Origin: Candidatus Nomurabacteria bacterium RIFOXYB1_FULL_39_16 | GTDB lineage: Bacteria; Patescibacteriota; Minisyncoccia; Phycocordibacterales; UBA9973 | Length of the DNA: 64,000 bases | Assembly (NCBI GenBank): GCA_001787205.1 | Contig: MFWB01000008.1 | Span: forward strand, 101,644 to 165,643 | Direction of reading: 5' to 3' | Shown here: positions 7,734 to 41,733 of the stretch, in pieces | Position numbering within the stretch: the stretch's first letter is position 1 | Layout: every line of letters starts with the position of its first letter | The notes under the pieces: model-generated | What the model was told of the DNA's origin: nothing | Database searches by the model: none | The model's input: the letters and a program-made list of their open reading frames with translations, nothing else | Translations under genes and position numbers: made by a program

Positions 7734-7990
7734 CGCCCCGACAAAAATGAATGATTTTTCATTTTTGTCGGGGCGAGTCTACTTCGCGGTTCCACCCAAC
7801 TTTGTTCTTTTTATTAAATATTTACAGATTAGCCGTTTTGGTTCTGTTTTAAACAGAATTATGGTTGGTAGCCACAACAATCTCTATATATCCTAATAAT
7901 ATCAAAGACAATTTTTTTGTCAAAGGTTTCGCATAGGTCCAAGTTCTCGTATAGTTTAATTGTATTATTTTCCCAATATCCCCATTTCAG
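7734..7990 (-). promoter_or_regulatory. T-box-like leader or attenuator upstream of thrS
   Basis: On the minus strand, GTTGGGTGGAACCGCG (7785-7800) matches the T-box consensus AGGGTGGNACCGCG. It is followed immediately by an 18-bp perfect hairpin (7734-7775) and a U-rich tract that ends about 10 nt before the thrS ATG. Confidence 0.55.
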
Positions 7991-8007
7991 CCATGGCGTA
8001 AATGGGG
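7980..8007. repeat. Palindromic element copy A (ccccatttcagccatggcgtaaatgggg)
   Basis: Near-perfect 28-bp palindrome. Copy B at 8411-8440 is a perfect 30-bp palindrome with the same arms. The two copies bracket the ORF 8023..8400. Confidence 0.8.
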
Positions 8008-8022
8008 TAACGGTAGTATTAT

Positions 8023-8400
8023 TTGTGTATGAGTCCTAGATTCTATAAAGGTATGCAAGTAAACGCTTTTGGCTTGCCAGTTTTTAAAAATGGTAGAAAA
8101 AGTCGCGCAAAGACAAAAAACAGGAAAAAATCTTTTTATTACACTACCTTCTCTTCACCTTTTGAGAAAAATTCTTCTAAAAATTTAATCGTTATGTATG
8201 ATGTTCCCCATGTACAGAAAAAAGAGCGTGACTGGTTTCGCAGGCATTTAATAAAATTTGAATATATTATGATTCAAAAAAGTGTGTGGGTCGGACCGTC
8301 GCCATTGCCCAAGGAGTTCTTGAATTATTTAGAAGAAATAAAGATAGGGGACAAGTTTAGAACGTTTAAATTGGCGAAGTCTTATACAGGGAAGCTTTAA
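8023..8400 (+). CDS. Cas2-like or VapD-fold small protein (N-terminal extension; the true start may be the internal ATG at 8053)
   Basis: LIVMYDV ... ERDWFRRHLIKFEY-IMIQKSVW ... FRTFKL matches the Cas2 pattern: beta1 YD(I/V), a basic helix, G-R-(V/I)-Q-x-S-V-F, and a C-terminal R-I-Y-K-L strand. Confidence 0.45.
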   Translation: MCMSPRFYKGMQVNAFGLPVFKNGRKSRAKTKNRKKSFYYTTFSSPFEKNSSKNLIVMYDVPHVQKKERDWFRRHLIKFEYIMIQKSVWVGPSPLPKEFLNYLEEIKIGDKFRTFKLAKSYTGKL

Positions 8401-8410
8401 TTTTGATAAA

Positions 8411-8440
8411 GCCCCATTTACGCCATGGCGTAAATGGGGC
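8411..8440. repeat. Palindromic element copy B (gccccatttacgccatggcgtaaatggggc)
   Basis: Perfect 30-bp palindrome centred on CATG. Confidence 0.8.
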
Positions 8441-8541
8441 TAATGAGGTTAATAGAGAAGATTTCATTTTTGTTTATAAACCAACGATTATTTTGCTCAG
8501 TATTTTGCATTTCATCTTTAATATGCTAGGATAAGTCTATT

Positions 8542-34978: not shown

Positions 34979-35024
34979 TGATTTTGCGAAATCACGTCGC
35001 GCAAGTCGATTAGGCGCGACGCTC

Positions 35025-35750
35025 TTATTTTTTCTCTGGTAAAGATGTTTGACCTTCTTTGTAAGCGTTACCGATGGCGGTAACGAAAAATTTAATGGAT
35101 GGGATGCCGGCGTCGTTTGCCACGATAGGGTAGTCAAGGCTTTTAATGTTTGAATCAGAATTTACTAAAGCGATTACCGGAATGCCGGATTTTCTAGCTT
35201 CAGTGGAGGCAATGTGTTCGCTTCTGGCATCTATGACGAATAATGCGTCCGGAGCTTTTTTCAAGCCAATCAATCCGGAATAGTACCTGGTGAGCTTCTC
35301 CATTTTCTTAGCCATTACCACACGTTCTTTCTTAGTGTATTTATCCAGTCCGCCAGTGGTGCTGTCTTTGCGATAATTTTCCAGTTCGGTTATTCTCTTT
35401 TTTATTTCAGTGAAATTAGAAAGCGTACCCCCGATCCATCTCTCCGTGACGTAAGGCATATTCAAGGATTCTGCCATATCTTTGGTGGTTACTTTCGCTT
35501 CCGGTTTGGTACCTACGAAAAGGACGGTTTTATTCTGGGCTCCGAGATTTTTTACAAATAGAAGAGCGGATTCCAACATTATGGTGGTCTTTTCCAGGTT
35601 GATTATATCCACTTTATTTTTGGTAGCGTATATGTACTTTGAGACAGAAGGGTGTCTTCTGGTCTTGCTGTAGCCGTAATGCGCCCCGGCCTTAAACATC
35701 TTTTCTACGATTGTATCGTTACTTTCCTGCGTGTTTTTTACTTTTTGCAT
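35025..35750 (-). CDS. rpsB: Ribosomal protein S2
   Basis: MFKAGAHYGYSKTRRHPSVSKYIY ... and the S2 fold. The track ORF starts at 35804; the likely start is MQKVKN or MFKAG. Confidence 0.88.
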   Translation of the reverse strand: MQKVKNTQESNDTIVEKMFKAGAHYGYSKTRRHPSVSKYIYATKNKVDIINLEKTTIMLESALLFVKNLGAQNKTVLFVGTKPEAKVTTKDMAESLNMPYVTERWIGGTLSNFTEIKKRITELENYRKDSTTGGLDKYTKKERVVMAKKMEKLTRYYSGLIGLKKAPDALFVIDARSEHIASTEARKSGIPVIALVNSDSNIKSLDYPIVANDAGIPSIKFFVTAIGNAYKEGQTSLPEKK

Positions 35751-35806
35751 ATGAATTAATATAGCAGAAGACCCATGCTTTTGCAACCGCGCCCACCAAC
35801 CCAAAA

Positions 35807-35827
35807 TTGCTAGGTCTTGCCTAGCAA
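35807..35827. repeat. REP-like palindromic element copy 1 (ttgctaggtcttgcctagcaa)
   Basis: 8-bp arms ttgctagg and cctagcaa around tcttg. Identical to copy 2 at 39701-39721 and an inverted match to copy 3 at 40399-40419. Confidence 0.8.
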
Positions 35828-35862
35828 TTTTGCAATTTAGTTTTCCCTTGCCAAAGTCCTGC

Positions 35863-35872
35863 GGGGGGGGGG
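35863..35872. repeat. Homopolymeric G10 tract upstream of the surface-protein gene
   Basis: gcgggggggggg read directly, about 67 bp upstream of the ATG at 35940, in otherwise AT-rich DNA. A TATTAT hexamer lies immediately downstream. Confidence 0.7.
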
Positions 35873-35939
35873 TATTATTAGTTGGATTGATATTATCAAC
35901 TCAACTTTTTTTCTTTTTAAATTAACAAGAATTTTAAGC

Positions 35940-38900
35940 ATGAATTACATATATCGCGCAATGGAGAACTTCCGTTTTAAATATCTTAGTGTTCTTGTTT
36001 TTATTGCCATCGGAGCATTCTTCTTCGGTTTTATTAAACCTGCAAGCGCAACTACTTTTTATGTTTCTCCTTCTGGATCAAACACATCCCCATATGATAC
36101 ATGGGCAAAGGCCGCCAATTTACCCTCCACAGTGATTACTGCCGGTAATTCATTAGCAGGACCTCACACAGCTTATATCGCTCCCGGTACATATGTTGGT
36201 AGTATTGCAATAACGGGGGTGAACTGGGCTGGGGGAACAATTTTTGGCACCTCTGCGCATGGTTCCACTAGTCCTGCAACTTTCGGCCAAGTAAATATAA
36301 GTCCAACTACGGGAGTAGCATTGACGTCTGGAAGAGCTGACCAAACAATTGAATATATATCAGCGACAAGTCCAGATAACGCTGTATTAAGTATAGGGTC
36401 TACTAATTTTTATGGAAAGGGTTTGTATTTACACGATGGAACAAATTTGGTTTTTCTTCCTTATTTGGCTACTAGTGCAACAATAGAATATTCAAAAATA
36501 TTAGGGAACAGTGATAATTTGGGTGTTGTGAGTTCTTCAAGTAATAACTTAACATTTAATTATTGTTTATTTGGAAATAGTGAAACTAATCTTTTTGGGA
36601 AAGGCACGGCTTCATCAAGGAATGGAATCGTACAATTAGGAAGTGGTATTTTGACTGTTAATAACAGTAGTCTTTTAGAGGCCAGGGCAAGCAATTTAGT
36701 GAATGAAGGTGCTGGATCTGTTGTTGCCAATAACAATATTATTGTTCCTGGTAGTGACTTCAATAACTACTATGGCATAAGTAGAATCAGTGGAACTATG
36801 AGTGTTAATAATAGTGCCCTTATAGGTAATATGCAGTATCCATCGTCTATACGAGGTGGAACAATAACAGAACAAAACAATTTAGATAACCCAAAAATAA
36901 ATTTTGTTCATTATCCAAGACAGGCGTTTGTTGTCCCGTCAGTGGATGACACATCGGGTGCTCCTTATGCAAAGGATTTGTCGGATGAATTATTAAGTCG
37001 TGGACAAGGAGGGACATTTTATGTAAATAATACTGGGCTTTCTACTTATCAAAGTACTATACAAGAAATCATAAATGACGGAGCTGTGGAGATTCAGGGA
37101 CACAGTAGGAGTCATGATAAAATGACTTATTCAGGTCCGCTTTATACCATAACTAAAGCGGGAGAAACAATAAATATAGACAGGAGTGGTGACACAATTA
37201 GTATTTCTAATACCGGAACAGTATCAGGGTTTAAATCAAAAACGTTACAAGTCATTTCAGCTGAGCTGGTCGCCATGGGAGCCACAGTCAGTGCATTAGC
37301 TTCTTCTGACATTACAGTTAATTCTTTGGGAGAAATTATTGCCGATAGTTCTGGCGCCCAAGCATCTCCTTACATTTCCCAAGTTCTGATTGACCCGACT
37401 GGGGATACTGGTTTCTATTACTCAGAAATAGTTTCTGCTGCAAGTGAATTAGCAACGGCGCTCGGGGTTCCCATAGATATTTTTGCTCCTCCCTATGGAA
37501 GCACAAATGATAATGTAAAAAATATTTGCCAGGCGAAAGGATTTAGAGCTTGCAGAGCTGGTAGTGATTGGGAACTGAAGAGTTTAGATTTACAAAGCTT
37601 AAGATATTTTTTAGTTTCAAACATTGTTGGAGTTGACGATGCAGAGACTGCTGCAAAAACTCGTTCTTTTGCTCATACGGCATTAAAAGTAGGAGGGTTA
37701 ATTAGTTTGTTGGGGCACAGTACATCTGAAGCGACCATTCAGCAATGGTCAGTTGTTTTAGATACTCTTAAAAATGAATTTCCCCAAATTCAAGTAACCA
37801 AGATGAGCACAGCTATAGATGAAATTAGAGACGGCGCTACTTGGGCCACTTCCGACAATAGAACGTATACTCGTTCTTGGAATGATTCTTCAGCTAACTA
37901 TAATCTCTCTTATAACTCTGAATTAATTGATGTCGGAATAGATGTTGGACTTACCGGCGATCTCGCAGGCAACCCTATTTACGGCACTCCTGACATCGGA
38001 GCATACGAATACCAACCACCACACGATATAACTTTAGCAACTCCAGACACTATAGACATAGGAGCGGGTGCGAGAATCTATGCTAACGGAAAATTTCGGG
38101 ATCTAGGAACAACGAATGCAACACCAGCCAGCTTAAAAATAACTCCAGCTAGTGGAAGTTTCACTGTTTATGGTGCAATCGATACAAAACCCGCTTGGCT
38201 TGATGTGACAAATATTTTAAACTGGACCAATACTCACAAAACCTGGACTGAGGGGAATGCCGTTGCGGGTCTAACCAACACGTTACATGTTGTAGGAGAT
38301 TTGAATGCCGACAAATATTATAATGTCAAATTAGATGATGTTTTAGGACAAAATATTACAGGAAATGATTGTACTGGAGGAATTTGTAAAGCGAACTCCT
38401 CGGGTGAAATTACCTTTACCTATACTGGCACTTATTCTGATCACATCTTTGATGTGACAGAAGAAGCGATCGCCCCCACCAACGTCGGCATCTCTTCTGT
38501 GGTAGTTGACTCAACCTCCAAATTAACCATTACAGCCCAAACAGCCGTGGATTCTGGCTCAGGTCTACACACTACTCCATATTGGTTTTCTGAAACATCA
38601 GGCAATGCAGGAAGTTCTTCTTCCTCTGATTGGCAAGCTTCAACCACATTCATTGACGATGACTTGTCTTGCAGTACGCAATATACATACAAGGTTAAAG
38701 TAAGAGATGCAAATGGAAACGAGTCCGCTTTCTCTGATCCAGTCTCTGTTTCAACTGACGGTTGTTCTAGCAGTGGTTCTCGCACTACCAGAAGAGTAAC
38801 CATTCCTTCCACTCCTGTTGCTCCTACCATTACCCCCAATCCTTTGCTAAGCTCTGAACCATCGGTCTACAATTTCGGTCCCGTAGTCCTTAAACAAAAG

Positions 38901-39095
38901 AGTAGGGGAGAAGCGGTAAAAGAATTACAGAGATTTTTAAATGCTAACCTAAACCTAGGTTTAATAGTAGATGGTATTTTCGGTCCGAAAACTCTGGCTG
39001 TGATAAAACAATGGCAAAAAGATAACGGACTAGTGGTAGATGGATTGGTGGGTCCGAAGACGAAAGTGAAGATGAATTTAGTTAATAAGAATTAG
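35940..39095 (+). CDS. Large secreted or cell-surface protein (1051 aa) with FN3-like and C-terminal peptidoglycan-binding (PG_binding_1-like) repeats
   Basis: Signal peptide. Ser/Thr/Asn/Gly-rich beta-helix-like body. YTYKVKVRDANGNESAFSDPVSV is FN3-like. Twin C-terminal repeats DGIFGPKTLAVIKQWQKDNGLVVDGLVGPKT. Confidence 0.7.
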   Translation: MNYIYRAMENFRFKYLSVLVFIAIGAFFFGFIKPASATTFYVSPSGSNTSPYDTWAKAANLPSTVITAGNSLAGPHTAYIAPGTYVGSIAITGVNWAGGTIFGTSAHGSTSPATFGQVNISPTTGVALTSGRADQTIEYISATSPDNAVLSIGSTNFYGKGLYLHDGTNLVFLPYLATSATIEYSKILGNSDNLGVVSSSSNNLTFNYCLFGNSETNLFGKGTASSRNGIVQLGSGILTVNNSSLLEARASNLVNEGAGSVVANNNIIVPGSDFNNYYGISRISGTMSVNNSALIGNMQYPSSIRGGTITEQNNLDNPKINFVHYPRQAFVVPSVDDTSGAPYAKDLSDELLSRGQGGTFYVNNTGLSTYQSTIQEIINDGAVEIQGHSRSHDKMTYSGPLYTITKAGETINIDRSGDTISISNTGTVSGFKSKTLQVISAELVAMGATVSALASSDITVNSLGEIIADSSGAQASPYISQVLIDPTGDTGFYYSEIVSAASELATALGVPIDIFAPPYGSTNDNVKNICQAKGFRACRAGSDWELKSLDLQSLRYFLVSNIVGVDDAETAAKTRSFAHTALKVGGLISLLGHSTSEATIQQWSVVLDTLKNEFPQIQVTKMSTAIDEIRDGATWATSDNRTYTRSWNDSSANYNLSYNSELIDVGIDVGLTGDLAGNPIYGTPDIGAYEYQPPHDITLATPDTIDIGAGARIYANGKFRDLGTTNATPASLKITPASGSFTVYGAIDTKPAWLDVTNILNWTNTHKTWTEGNAVAGLTNTLHVVGDLNADKYYNVKLDDVLGQNITGNDCTGGICKANSSGEITFTYTGTYSDHIFDVTEEAIAPTNVGISSVVVDSTSKLTITAQTAVDSGSGLHTTPYWFSETSGNAGSSSSSDWQASTTFIDDDLSCSTQYTYKVKVRDANGNESAFSDPVSVSTDGCSSSGSRTTRRVTIPSTPVAPTITPNPLLSSEPSVYNFGPVVLKQKSRGEAVKELQRFLNANLNLGLIVDGIFGPKTLAVIKQWQKDNGLVVDGLVGPKTKVKMNLVNKN

Positions 39096-39124
39096 TTGAT
39101 TTTGTGTTATAAGTCAGCACTTAA

Positions 39125-39646
39125 TTGATGATGAAAATAAAACAAAAAGGTTTTACCCTAATAGAGTTGTTGGTGGTCGTGGCAATCATCGGGCTTTTGT
39201 CGTCTATTGTTTTAACTTCTGTTAATTCCGCAAGGAAAAAAGCTCGTGATGCTAGAACCTTAGAGGATGTGCGTCAGATTACCCTTGCTCTTAATATGGT
39301 GCGTGATGCGAGTCCAACTTATAGCTGGCCGGGAGTATCAGGCTGGCAGTGTCTAAAAGCGAGTGGAAGCTGTTGGAGGAATTCATATGCGGGGAACAGT
39401 ACAATAGGAAATGCTCTTTTGCCTTTTATGCCCGAGATTCCCAAAACACAAAATCCGAATGCTGGTTATTATGCTTATGATTCATATTTGTATAATCGAG
39501 CTTTTCCTGGCGCGGCAGGCAGTCCTGCGGGGGCGTATATCATATATGCTCTTGAAGGGGGTGATTTTTCTACTAAATGCAATGGATTTTATGCTGGGCA
39601 ATTAGAGACAGGTTACTGGTATTGTTATTTTTGGATAGGGAATTAA
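39125..39646 (+). CDS. Type IV pilin or pseudopilin, paralog 2
   Basis: KGFTLIELLVVVAIIGLLSS prepilin motif and a Cys-rich C-terminus. Followed by a terminator hairpin (cctgacaa ... ttgtcagg plus T-run, about 39657-39693). Confidence 0.85.
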   Translation: MMMKIKQKGFTLIELLVVVAIIGLLSSIVLTSVNSARKKARDARTLEDVRQITLALNMVRDASPTYSWPGVSGWQCLKASGSCWRNSYAGNSTIGNALLPFMPEIPKTQNPNAGYYAYDSYLYNRAFPGAAGSPAGAYIIYALEGGDFSTKCNGFYAGQLETGYWYCYFWIGN

Positions 39647-39700
39647 TTTTTTAATCCTGACAAGGTTTAACTTTGTCAGGAAATATGTTTTTTACTGATA

Positions 39701-39721
39701 TTGCTAGGTCTTGCCTAGCAA
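39701..39721. repeat. REP-like palindromic element copy 2
   Basis: Identical to copy 1. Lies at the 3' flank of the RAYT-like gene. Confidence 0.8.
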
Positions 39722-40374
39722 GTTTTATAGTTCAGCCATTCAAAAATTTCTTTTTGAAATGATTTGTTGTTTGGGAAATACTCCGGGAAATTTTCTGCGT
39801 TTAATATTTTATTTTGGATTCTTTTTATGCCTAAATAATCAAAGTAGCTTGAGTATTTATAGTTTTGTAAATATTCTAAAGCTTCTTTTTTATTTTTAAT
39901 TCCAACCTCCCTCCAATTTTTCTGGATTAGTTTTATTGGGTTCAAATGAATATATGAGAATAAATATTTTAAATATCTATCATTACTCAAGTGTTGAGAT
40001 TTAAACTTACCCTCAAATAATCCACCGGTTCTTTTGTATTTTTTGTTGTAGTACATAGAATATGCAGTACCTAATTTTTGCATAAATTTACTGATACCTT
40101 TTTCCTCTGTTGGGGTGATAAGGATATGAAAATGATTTGGCATCAGACAATAAGCTCCGATGGATACAATTTTTTTACCCCCTTCAAAATCATACGGACT
40201 CTCATTTTTTGCTAGAGTAAAAATTCTAAAACTATTTGTGGAGTTACAGGCATATAAAAGACTTACAAAGCGAGAGTAGTCTTCGTTGTCGTGGAAAATT
40301 TTCTGTTTACTATTGCCACGGTTGTATATGTGGTAATACTCTCCATCGACTAAATTTGCTTCCCTAATAGACAT
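39715..40374 (-). CDS. IS200/IS605-like HUH tyrosine transposase, REP-associated (RAYT-like)
   Basis: HUH motif MPNHFHILI, a Tyr-rich catalytic helix (YSMYYNKKY) and the conserved IHLNPIK block. Flanked by inverted REP-like copies. The track ORF extends to 40575 and overlaps proS; the start MSIREANL at 40374 is preferred. Confidence 0.6.
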   Translation of the reverse strand: MSIREANLVDGEYYHIYNRGNSKQKIFHDNEDYSRFVSLLYACNSTNSFRIFTLAKNESPYDFEGGKKIVSIGAYCLMPNHFHILITPTEEKGISKFMQKLGTAYSMYYNKKYKRTGGLFEGKFKSQHLSNDRYLKYLFSYIHLNPIKLIQKNWREVGIKNKKEALEYLQNYKYSSYFDYLGIKRIQNKILNAENFPEYFPNNKSFQKEIFEWLNYKTC

Positions 40375-40398
40375 ATAGGCTATTATATACCGGGGAAA

Positions 40399-40419
40399 TT
40401 GCCAGGCAAGACCTAGCAA
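40399..40419. repeat. REP-like palindromic element copy 3 (inverted, 1 mismatch)
   Basis: ttgccaggcaagacctagcaa is the reverse complement of copies 1 and 2 with one substitution. Lies between the RAYT start and proS. Confidence 0.75.
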
Positions 40420-40464
40420 CTTTTTATCTTTGACCAAAAGACTTTTTTCGGGTAAGATGCAAGT

Positions 40465-41733
40465 ATGACTAACAGTATGAAGCAATCGCAACTTTTCACT
40501 AAAACCAGGAAAGAAGCGCCGGCAGACGAGACATCCAAGAATGCTGAGCTTTTGACTCGGGGCGGTTTTATTCATAAGGAAATGGCAGGAGTGTATTCTT
40601 TTTTACCACTCGGCTTGCGCGTTATAAACAAAGTAGAAAATATAATCAGGGAAGAAATGGATAAAATCGGGGGAACAGAAATGAGGACATCTGTGCTCCA
40701 AAATAAAGAAGTCTGGGAGAAGTCAGGTAGATGGGATGATGAAGTTGTAGACAATTGGTTTAAAACAAAATTAAAAAACGGAGGAGACGTCGGTTTGTCG
40801 TTTACGAATGAAGAAGCTTATTCAAATATTTTAAAACAATATGTGAGCTCGTATAAAGACTTGCCGATTTATCCGTACGATTTCAAAAGTATTTTCAGAA
40901 ACGAGACGAGAAGCAAATCCGGAATTATGAGAGGGAGAGAGTTTTACTGGAAAGCGCTCTATTCATTTTCTAAGAACGAAGAAGAACATAATGCTTTTTA
41001 TGAAAAGGCGAAAGTAGCTTACCAAAATATTTTTAAAAGAGCCGGAATTGGTCATCTGACTTATGTAACTTTCGCCTCGGGAGGAACTTTCTCTAAGTTT
41101 TCACACGAATTTCAAACCATAACTTCTGTCGGGGAGGACACTGTTTATTTGGATGAAGCTTCAAATGTCGCAATAAATGAAGAAGTTTACAATGACGAAG
41201 TTATCGCGGAACTCAAACTCAAAAAAGAAAATTTGATTGAAAAAAAGGCGATTGAGGTGGGAAACATTTTTTCGTTAGGAACGAAGTTTTCGGCTCCTTT
41301 TGACCTTAAATATAAAGACGAAAATGGGGAAGAGAAATTAGTGATAATGGGCAGTTATGGTATTGGTTTGGGGCGGTTGATGGGCACAGTAGTAGAGGTT
41401 CTCTCGGACGACAAGGGGATAGTTTGGCCCGAATCTATTGCTCCGTTTACTATTCATCTACTTGCCTTAGGCGACGATGAAGTGGTTATGAAAGAAGCGA
41501 ACAAAGTTTACGAGAGTCTATCTCAAGCGGGAGTGGAAGTTTTATTTGACGACCGCTCTGGGATGTCTGCCGGAGAAAAGTTTTCCGATGCGGATTTGCT
41601 TGGGATGCCTTACCGGGCCGTAGTTTCTCCAAGGAGCATCAAGGAAGGAGGGATAGAACTAAAAAAGCGCACAGAAGAAAAAGGTAAAATTGTTTCTGTC
41701 GATGAGTTGTTAACTTTATTTAAGCCTATTTAA
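40465..41733 (+). CDS. proS: Prolyl-tRNA synthetase, compact form without the editing insertion
   Basis: MKQSQLFTKTRKEAPADETSKNAELL ... and a class II core, plus a C-terminal anticodon-binding domain. 422 aa. Confidence 0.88.
   Translation: MTNSMKQSQLFTKTRKEAPADETSKNAELLTRGGFIHKEMAGVYSFLPLGLRVINKVENIIREEMDKIGGTEMRTSVLQNKEVWEKSGRWDDEVVDNWFKTKLKNGGDVGLSFTNEEAYSNILKQYVSSYKDLPIYPYDFKSIFRNETRSKSGIMRGREFYWKALYSFSKNEEEHNAFYEKAKVAYQNIFKRAGIGHLTYVTFASGGTFSKFSHEFQTITSVGEDTVYLDEASNVAINEEVYNDEVIAELKLKKENLIEKKAIEVGNIFSLGTKFSAPFDLKYKDENGEEKLVIMGSYGIGLGRLMGTVVEVLSDDKGIVWPESIAPFTIHLLALGDDEVVMKEANKVYESLSQAGVEVLFDDRSGMSAGEKFSDADLLGMPYRAVVSPRSIKEGGIELKKRTEEKGKIVSVDELLTLFKPI

Follow-up and report, generated by a model that had tools for sequence, protein, structure and literature searches.

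A probable REPtron-like locus in Nomurabacteria: a Y1 HUH endonuclease gene flanked by its probable cognate hairpin

We analyzed a 64,000-nucleotide stretch of the genome of Candidatus Nomurabacteria bacterium RIFOXYB1_FULL_39_16 (hereafter, the window), which contains three copies of a 21-nucleotide (nt) hairpin, two of them bracketing a gene for a Y1 HUH tyrosine endonuclease. We regard it as probable that gene and hairpin together form a REPtron-like locus of the Candidate Phyla Radiation (CPR), of a Nomurabacteria/Paceibacteria type, in which a domesticated class-2 Y1 HUH endonuclease is flanked by its cognate hairpin. The observations behind this reading are the anatomy of the locus, the catalytic motifs and fold of the protein, the synteny of its gene and, in related genomes, the dispersal of the hairpin, the covariation of its stem and its presence inside coding genes. 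Repetitive extragenic palindromes (REPs), together with REP-associated tyrosine transposases (RAYTs), are the best-studied case of a domesticated transposase in bacteria and are known almost wholly from Proteobacteria; to our knowledge, what they bring to their hosts has still not been established. Among the papers that can be searched in full text, we found none in which Patescibacteria or Parcubacteria are connected with REP or RAYT.

A Y1 gene between two hairpins

The 21-mer TTGCTAGGTCTTGCCTAGCAA consists of an 8-bp stem and a 5-nt loop (TTGCTAGG-TCTTG-CCTAGCAA). By searching both strands of the window for the pattern TTGCTAGG-N5-CCTAGCAA with up to two mismatches we found three matches, whereas 0.02 are expected from the dinucleotide shuffles that served as a chance control (0 of 100 shuffles gave three). 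Copy 1 (35807-35827) and copy 2 (39701-39721) are exact matches on the plus strand, with the loop TCTTG. Copy 3 (40399-40419) is a reverse complement, on the minus strand, with one change, so that the plus strand reads TTGCCAGGCAAGACCTAGCAA; through this change the minus strand, which is the sense strand of the Y1 gene, has a G·T wobble, and the plus strand has a C·A mismatch. The loops of copies 2 and 3 are therefore oppositely oriented (TCTTG versus CAAGA). A search with the looser core GCTAGG-N5-CCTAGC (up to two mismatches) and a six-frame peptide search gave no further copies in the 64 kb, so all three lie within 4.6 kb of one another, and neither the pattern search nor the loose-core search found a REP doublet in the window.

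Copy 1 is situated between two divergent genes, rpsB (minus strand, ATG at 35752) and a gene for a 1051-amino-acid (aa) surface protein (plus strand, 35940). Its perfect palindrome reaches 35803-35831 by way of AAAA/TTTT flanks (13 bp), and its predicted fold as single-stranded DNA has an energy of -13.1 kcal/mol (z = -7.1), compared with -7.7 kcal/mol for copy 2 and -5.8 kcal/mol for copy 3 on the minus strand. An Rfam scan of positions 35000-41000 at E <= 1 gave no match, and hence no described RNA family. The GC skew of the window is too strongly confounded by gene orientation for hairpin orientation to be set against the direction of replication.

The open reading frame (ORF) between copies 2 and 3 (39715-40374, minus strand, ATG at 40374) is a Y1 HUH protein of 219 aa, RAYT/TnpAREP-like in character. 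The Pfam family Y1_Tnp (PF01797) matches residues 69-143 (E = 5.3e-11) and, at 43.1 bits, clears its curated cut-off of 23. The HUH motif is H81-F82-H83, preceded by N80 (PNHFHILI), and the catalytic tyrosine is Y141 in the sequence SYIHLNPIK. Two alignments, of 25 and of 27 homologs, show no variation at N80, H81, F82, H83 or Y141, and in the set of 27 the remainder of the motif YIHLNP is also strongly conserved (H143, L144 and N145 invariant, P146 nearly so). By the criterion of PMC6006769 (Table 1), this tyrosine motif belongs to the Y---NP class (class 2, RAYT-type), and the motifs and length of the protein fit subclass 2.1 of that class, an assignment made by motif rather than by alignment to reference sequences. 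The protein has more than 7,900 homologs; the best 120 are 67-100% identical to it, and the source names among these 120 are Nomurabacteria or Paceibacterota, plus one 'archaeon'.

An AlphaFold2 model of the protein is confident (pLDDT 80.5) and has the HUH fold. Its top Foldseek match by TM-score is 4er8_A, the E. coli TnpAREP bound to a REP hairpin (TMt 0.59). Foldseek assigned a probability of 1.00 to 4er8_A, 2vjv_A, 2xm3, 2a6m and 2f4f, and the TnpA proteins of IS608, ISDra2 and IS200 rank after 4ER8; these matches have modest E-values, from 3e-4 to 2e-2, and Thg1 palm-fold proteins reach similar scores. A search of the PDB with the single Y1 sequence found nothing relevant, and a profile search of the PDB found weak matches only, to ISDra2 TnpA and 4ER8 (E 0.1-0.3). 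The protein has a C-terminal extension of about 70 aa that is helical in the model; the C-terminal 72 aa match no Pfam family even at E = 10.

The hairpins are closely fitted to the ends of the gene. The ATG is preceded by copy 3 at a distance of 24 nt. At its 3' end the ORF runs into copy 2, whose loop reads CAAGA on the Y1 sense strand, and it therefore stops at a TAG within the stem of this copy. The top-ranked promoter-like site in the region (TTGCCT-16 nt-TATAAT at 40382-40409 on the minus strand, with 10/12 matches) is a predicted Y1 promoter whose -35 hexamer lies inside copy 3 and whose -10 box ends 7 nt before the ATG. The two copies that flank Y1 may double as promoter and stop elements.

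Much of this anatomy had been noticed in an earlier reading of the stretch made from its letters alone (the sequence-only reading). That reading described three copies of a 21-bp element, two of them inverted and directly flanking a Y1 ORF with the motifs HFHIL and IHLNPIK, and a third in the intergenic region between rpsB and the surface-protein gene next to a G10 tract, and our analysis agrees with it on every one of these points: one of the copies has a single change, the bracketing is tight, and copy 1 and the G10 tract are 35 nt apart. It also proposed checking whether the ORF matches Y1_Tnp and retains the catalytic tyrosine, and it does both.

The hairpin and the Y1 gene in related genomes

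We scanned one genome per species (185,579 species) for the hairpin, and metagenomes in addition. The genome scan returned 34 stretches with the 21-mer, of which 32 come from 19 CPR assemblies that have 1-6 exact copies each, on different contigs. The metagenome scan returned 47 more, giving 81 independent public loci in all (designated by L-numbers here) and, after removal of duplicates, 77 distinct CPR copies. The other two stretches of the genome scan, L010 (Chitinivibrionales) and L030 (Streptosporangiaceae), lie outside the CPR; they have only the C/G double variant of the degenerate pattern and were set aside as probable chance matches. A 21-mer confined to its three sites would have told against the sequence-only reading; further copies do exist, though they were seen in relatives rather than in the source genome. 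In a viral collection of 2.9 million contigs we found one match to the 17-nt core of the hairpin (L088:154-170, on IMG/VR contig 3300004805_000359), which is the CC/GG-stem variant aaaCCGCTAGGTCTTGCCTAGCGGtag, and no relatives of Y1, giving no indication of a phage vector.

Bracketing of the Y1 gene by the hairpin is a recurrent feature. Among lineages in which both ends of Y1 are on the contig, all are bracketed except one (L012/L042/L063, which has the upstream copy only); this amounts to at least 12 related lineages, with orthologs that are 62-95% identical. Hairpins flank Y1 in the window, L003/L061, L006/L048, L007/L041/L072, L019, L027/L074, L054, L056, L057, L077 and L082-84. The upstream copy is in one orientation in 12 of 13 lineages (that of the window, where the loop reads TCTTG on the sense strand of Y1), and a -10-like box follows 12-16 nt past it in L003, L019, L006, L027, L077, L012 and L007. 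The downstream copy is 0-9 nt from the Y1 stop codon or supplies it, and can be in either orientation; the ORF ends ...C* inside the hairpin in L027, L054 and L056, as it does in the window. The flanking copies are inverted in the window, L027, L054, L056, L077, L082 and L007, and direct in L003/L061, L006/L048 and L019. With direct copies at some loci, and inverted copies in the opposite order in L007, this layout is not the conserved signature that the sequence-only reading took it for.

The window and L003 have Y1 proteins that are 95% identical and flanking DNA that is 88-92% identical, but the downstream hairpin differs between them in both orientation and position, so hairpin copies turn over faster than the Y1 gene does. 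DNA homology with L003 restarts at 39724, 3 nt beyond copy 2. The position and orientation of copy 1 are kept in L003, L050 and L058, and L050, an independent contig that is 99.8% identical to the window, reproduces this copy. At L077:99-784 the Y1 ortholog, possibly a pseudogene, is split over two frames by a frameshift or an assembly error, while hairpins bracket it there too.

The gene also has a conserved genomic context. P0004, a Y1 homolog 85% identical to the window protein, has one gene context on all 24 contigs that we read: proS - Y1 - small ORF - rpsB - tsf. The order rpsB-Y1-proS is kept in four lineages (the window, L003, L019 and L082); in L006/L048 the Y1 cassette is downstream of proS, and in the window it is upstream. 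Between the window and L082, Y1 is 84.7% identical, as compared to 67.4% for ProS and 36.4% for RpsB, so Y1 is more conserved than its housekeeping neighbors. We found no second Y1 copy in the window. Single copy number, vertical inheritance and housekeeping-like conservation are the properties that separate RAYTs from insertion sequences (Bertels et al., PMC5581495), and the sequence comparisons support the view that Y1 behaves as a single-locus, vertically kept, domesticated gene rather than as a selfish one.

Some relatives have a second, divergent Y1 paralog (L082:112-798, L031:3638-4342, L083 and L084) of 228-234 aa and about 33-35% identity, which lacks the HLNP part of the tyrosine motif. 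In L082 it is located just after mreC, where the window has tgt and no paralog.

The 77 copies define a 25-nt consensus, A-N-[21-mer]-N'-T (25-mer ANTTGCTAGGTCTTGCCTAGCAAN'T). Flank position -2 is A in 68 of them and +2 is T in 60. The bases at position ±1 form Watson-Crick pairs in 59/77 copies, against 24 expected (0 of 2,000 shuffles exceeded 36), the pairs being AT in 27, GC in 16 and CG in 15. The stem is extended by at least 5 bp of unrelated sequence in 14 copies (1.3 expected), and its outer TT/AA pairs are replaced compensatingly, by CT/AG in L082 and by CC/GG in L085, L087 and L088. Because the stem pairs covary, the hairpin resolves into an invariant core, GCTAGG-TCTTG-CCTAGC, on a lower stem that is variable but paired; to judge from these alignments, core and covarying stem are the signature of a structure-specific ligand. 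Alternatively, the ±1/±2 pattern could have arisen by insertion into a small palindromic target tetranucleotide, in which case the flanks would be outside the element.

Possible traces of rearrangement are also seen. There is one inverted doublet among the 77 copies (L079:1483-1532), in which two full copies are separated by an 8-nt spacer. Half-hairpin remnants adjoin full copies at L027:5569, L028:174, L043:256, L051:367, L053:150 and L075:12519 (for example, as repeats of CCTAGCAAGTTT). Remnants and doublet alike may be footprints of repeated cleavage and joining.

Outside genes, the hairpins have a preferred orientation. When Y1-flanking copies are excluded, the intergenic copies between genes that run in the same direction have the CAAGA loop on the sense strand in 17 cases and the opposite orientation in 4, a count that includes some orthologous sites. 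Many intergenic copies are 0-15 nt past a stop codon, as in L002, L009, L015, L019, L027, L037, L047, L049 and L076. Since intergenic copies share the bias of those within genes, selection on the encoded peptide is not sufficient to explain it; it may come from strand-specific insertion (as in IS608, into the lagging-strand template) or from a role at the RNA level.

In relatives, though not in the window, we also found the hairpin well inside long ORFs (16/77 copies, at about 12 independent sites). The genes hit, whose families we confirmed, code for KsgA (two sites), Fpg, LigA (two sites), TruB, PurD, RsmI, GatB, MnmA, a surface protein of 2,203 aa and a protein of the DUF192 family. Of the six reading frames of the 21-mer, no more than two are free of TAG, one in each orientation, and they encode ARSCLA and ARQDLA; every genic copy encodes ARQDLA. 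With one TAG-free phase per orientation, the hairpin survives in essential genes as this peptide.

For RsmI we compared 120 orthologs (81-88% identical). In most of them the loop is 9 residues long and shows nothing of a hairpin. Eight of the 120 have an exact ARQDLA, at several registers, and about 11 have decayed forms of it (ARQGLA, ARQNLA and TRQDL); two proteins are longer by 7 aa, or 21 nt. At the DNA level, L085 and L087, which have the CC/GG-variant hairpin, are 21 nt longer than the empty locus L086, and this is the sole clean length comparison between a filled and an empty site. If 21 nt is the inserted unit, insertion is frame-safe because the unit equals 7 codons. At other sites the loops differ in length by 0, +2 or +3 residues, so trimming or replacement takes place as well. 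At positions where other genomes have ARQDLA, in KsgA (L008:2559-3443) and at LigA site B of L052, we noted peptides such as GQRKSLAK and CVRQDLTQ; these resemble hairpin insertions of long ago that have decayed into plain loop sequence.

Proposed mechanism, alternative explanations and the surface-protein slot

What we infer for this locus is binding, cleavage, strand transfer, promoter use and any benefit to the host, through a mechanism that is likely to resemble, by homology, that of the structurally solved E. coli TnpAREP and IS608/ISDra2 systems. The Y1 enzyme would bind the folded hairpin in single-stranded DNA and nick it at the foot of the stem, using a metal bound by H81/H83 and the tyrosine Y141 to form a 5'-phosphotyrosyl intermediate. 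It would then rejoin the strand elsewhere, so that hairpin units of 21-25 nt could be created, moved, flipped or deleted. The core of the unit would remain fixed, and its outer stem pairs would change only in a compensating way. As the upstream hairpin bears the predicted Y1 -35 box, autoregulation would be possible; the downstream hairpin abuts or supplies the stop codon.

Several observations count against a REPtron-like locus. The NHFH and YIHLNP motifs match TnpAY1 subclass 2.1, which has been reported to be without REPs (PMC6006769), and the sole NCBIfam match of the protein, to the equivalog NF047646 (REP_Tyr_transpos), reaches 48.4 bits where the cut-off is 80. The number of exact copies in each relative's genome, 1-6, is two orders of magnitude under that of classical REPs, and there is no 5' GT[AG]G guide tetranucleotide, the flank consensus of the 77 copies being A-N...N'-T. 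The same hairpin is present in genomes whose RpsB proteins are only about 36-42% identical, unlike the REPs of known systems, which are species-specific. Every copy in the window is at most 4.6 kb from the Y1 gene, so that dispersal is seen in relatives and not in the source genome. Lastly, the filled and empty loops of LigA, TruB, KsgA, Fpg and RsmI differ by 0, +2, +3 or +7 residues, and could reflect either insertion with trimming or replacement, the loops being too variable to give the exact boundaries or the target site of an insertion.

The locus might instead be an active miniature element of the IS200/IS605 type. In that case the 719-bp unit hairpin-tnpA-hairpin (39701-40419) would move as a whole and the lone hairpins would be solo ends, or derivatives akin to miniature inverted-repeat transposable elements. 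The unit is compact, a gene with one hairpin on either side and no other content, and its Y1 fold is common to the TnpA proteins of IS608 and ISDra2; moreover, proS follows the cassette in the window and precedes it in L006/L048, the neighbors of the gene differ between loci at 62-67% Y1 identity, and the L077 copy is split between two frames. We nevertheless consider an active element unlikely. Its tyrosine motif should be the Y---Q of IS200 and is instead Y---NP (PMC6006769, Table 1), and its left and right ends, both on one strand, should differ from each other, whereas here the same hairpin is at both ends and the relative orientation varies. Synteny and conservation also argue for a gene that stays in place: P0004 is in one context on 24/24 contigs, there is no second copy in the window, and rpsB-Y1-proS is kept while RpsB identity drops to 36% and Y1 remains more conserved than its neighbors. 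These traits, together with the absence of Y1 relatives from the 2.9 million viral contigs, fit RAYTs and make an active IS200-like element the weaker reading.

It is slightly less probable still that the hairpin is primarily a host cis-element–for example, a bidirectional intrinsic terminator, a stabilizer of mRNA 3' ends, or a promoter or operator module–whose link to Y1 is secondary and which Y1 does not mobilize. A terminator scan does pick up copies 1 and 2, the flanks are rich in A 5' of the hairpin and in T 3' of it, many intergenic copies in relatives closely follow a stop codon, those between genes of one direction have the 17:4 orientation bias, and the predicted Y1 promoter has its -35 box in a hairpin. 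However, copy 1 is upstream of two divergent promoters and not behind a gene, the T-tail is mostly only 2-4 T, there is no Rfam match, and the identical 21-mer at about 12 coding sites cannot be a terminator. A cis-element would also leave unexplained the bracketing of Y1 in at least 12 lineages. The two roles are in any case compatible, because classical REPs are both cis-regulatory and mobilized. As for chance or misassembly, which would make the copies three unrelated palindromes near the fragment of a decayed transposase, the small copy number in the window is all that speaks for it, and we consider it refuted: three matches were found where 0.02 were expected, 81 independent public loci have the hairpin, L050 reproduces copy 1, and the ORF is intact, with more than 7,900 homologs and invariant catalytic residues.

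Accepting a REPtron-like locus, one can ask what it is for. An unlikely but far-reaching answer is that it is a conserved host system of a large CPR clade, used for frame-safe editing or diversification of single-stranded DNA or for regulation, and not a decaying parasite. The hairpin would be written strand-specifically, 21 nt at a time, into the 3' ends of genes and into surface loops of essential enzymes that act on nucleic acids, always as ARQDLA, and Y1 would be under stronger purifying selection than the adjoining ribosomal and tRNA-synthetase genes, with the core held invariant down to about 36% RpsB identity. Whether or not that answer holds, the low copy number, the identity of the hairpin across deeply diverged species, the conservation of Y1 beyond that of its housekeeping neighbors, and the toleration of the repeat inside essential genes in a single frame together suggest function rather than parasitism. 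A REPtron-like locus here would carry the REP/RAYT paradigm to the tiny genomes of CPR bacteria, in which every kilobase is under pressure, and it would offer a very simple substrate (a perfect hairpin of 21-25 nt) and an enzyme of 219 aa for probing RAYT-type function. In annotation and alignment, the ends of genes may hold such 21-mer palindromes and CPR proteins may hold ARQDLA-type segments; both should be treated as repeat-derived.

The region between copies 1 and 2 has features of its own. A G10 tract (35863-35872, plus strand), which is not part of the hairpin system, is located in the 19-nt spacer of a promoter-like site of the surface-protein gene, between TTGCCA (35848-35853) and TATTAT (35873-35878). 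The tract is G9 in L050, at 99.8% identity, and G11 in L003, and from these lengths it looks like a slipped-strand, phase-variable promoter. The 1051-aa surface protein has polysaccharide-deacetylase and peptidoglycan-binding domains. Positions 35911-39723, containing its gene and a pilin-like gene with an N_methyl motif (39125-39646), are a hypervariable surface-protein slot: their DNA shows no homology with the same slot of L003 or L058, while on either side of it the sequences are 88-92% identical. The 'cargo' genes of relatives are unrelated (they code for a surface protein, a Nudix-like protein and one unknown protein). The right edge of the slot is copy 2; the left edge is 83 nt from copy 1, inside an unrelated hairpin in the 5' untranslated region that differs between relatives. 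More speculative than the host system just described is an integron-like exchange, by the Y1 enzyme, of hairpin-bounded segments next to its gene, with the 35911-39723 slot, the Nudix-like gene of L027 and the 227-aa gene of L019 as candidates. Cassette exchange between copies 1 and 2 in particular is unsupported, because the left edge misses copy 1 and the 'cargo' genes are unrelated.

Elsewhere in the window there is another palindrome, of 28 bp (CCCCATTTACGCCATGGCGTAAATGGGG), which is perfect at 8412-8439 and imperfect at 7980-8007 (regions 7974-8007 and 8412-8445). Its copies bracket a 125-aa gene (8023-8400) with PaaX_M/Cas2-like matches (E = 3e-12 and 5e-7), which makes this the second palindrome-bracketed gene of the window.

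Comparison with known systems

The closest counterparts are the REPtrons of E. coli (YafM, structure 4ER8), Pseudomonas, Stenotrophomonas and Marinomonas. Like them, our locus has a single-locus Y1 HUH gene with the Y---NP motif and a short palindrome that directly flanks the gene and recurs elsewhere–here, in the genomes of relatives. They also provide its closest solved fold, and they share its housekeeping-like conservation and vertical inheritance (PMC5581495). The differences are that the hairpin has no GT[AG]G tag and forms almost no doublets (the REPINs or bacterial interspersed mosaic elements, BIMEs, of other systems), that there are 1-6 copies per genome instead of hundreds (classically more than 100, mostly extragenic), and that from one orthologous locus to another the flanking copies do not keep one orientation. 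Known REPs are confined to a species or genus, but here one 21-mer is shared by genomes with RpsB proteins only about 36-42% identical; the protein also falls below the NCBIfam equivalog cut-off and has a C-terminal extension of about 70 aa without a Pfam match. There is some precedent for these features. REPs that are perfect palindromes and are processed by their own TnpAREP have been described (PMC8266576); DNA ligase and truB are among the genes known to contain REPs in frame, and REPs nested in short palindromes have been described too (PMC3733652); and TnpAY1 subclasses 2.6 and 3 are also without GT[AG]G (PMC6006769). The sequence-only reading, which saw here a RAYT with REP-like palindromes, is therefore largely right, as fold, tyrosine motif and bracketing show, but needs to be qualified as to tag, copy number and equivalog score. 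Its 'REPIN arrangement' did not survive, because there is no doublet in the window and a single inverted one, that of L079, among 77 copies, and the 5' TA that it proposed to look for is absent, as is a GTAG tag.

By its motifs the protein is nearest to TnpAY1 subclass 2.1 (Quentin et al. 2018; group 1 of Bertels; the 'TIRYT' of De Nocera et al. 2013). The two have in common NH[YF]H and Y[IV]HLNP, a length of about 220-240 aa with a C-terminal extension, and a low copy number (PMC6006769, Table 1). Members of subclass 2.1, of about 238 aa, have a C-terminal helix-turn-helix tail (Bac_DnaA_C, HTH_23 or HTH_28), and no REP-like hairpins have been reported for them; they have terminal inverted repeats with GGGGWSAS, or nothing (PMC6006769). 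In contrast, the window gene is flanked by a true stem-loop, has no GGGGWSAS repeats, and has a tail without a Pfam match.

With the IS200/IS605 family (IS608 and ISDra2) the locus has in common the Y1 HUH fold, a hairpin at each end of the gene, the single-stranded DNA chemistry expected of it, and an orientation bias of the kind expected from lagging-strand targeting. It differs in having Y---NP where IS200 has Y---Q (PMC6006769, Table 1), for which reason the label 'IS200-like' in the sequence-only reading is misleading. Those elements are also multi-copy and near-identical within genomes, with a fixed tetra- or pentanucleotide target and with distinct left and right ends on one strand, whereas here the hairpins are identical and their orientation is variable.

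Finally, the copies inside coding genes resemble the Rickettsia palindromic elements (RPEs), which are in-frame palindromes in housekeeping genes whose peptides are tolerated in surface loops. RPE-1 elements are longer than the 21-nt hairpin (PMC3733652). Unlike RPEs, the hairpin described here is a unit of 21 nt (7 codons) that encodes a single peptide, ARQDLA, and it comes with a candidate cognate enzyme.

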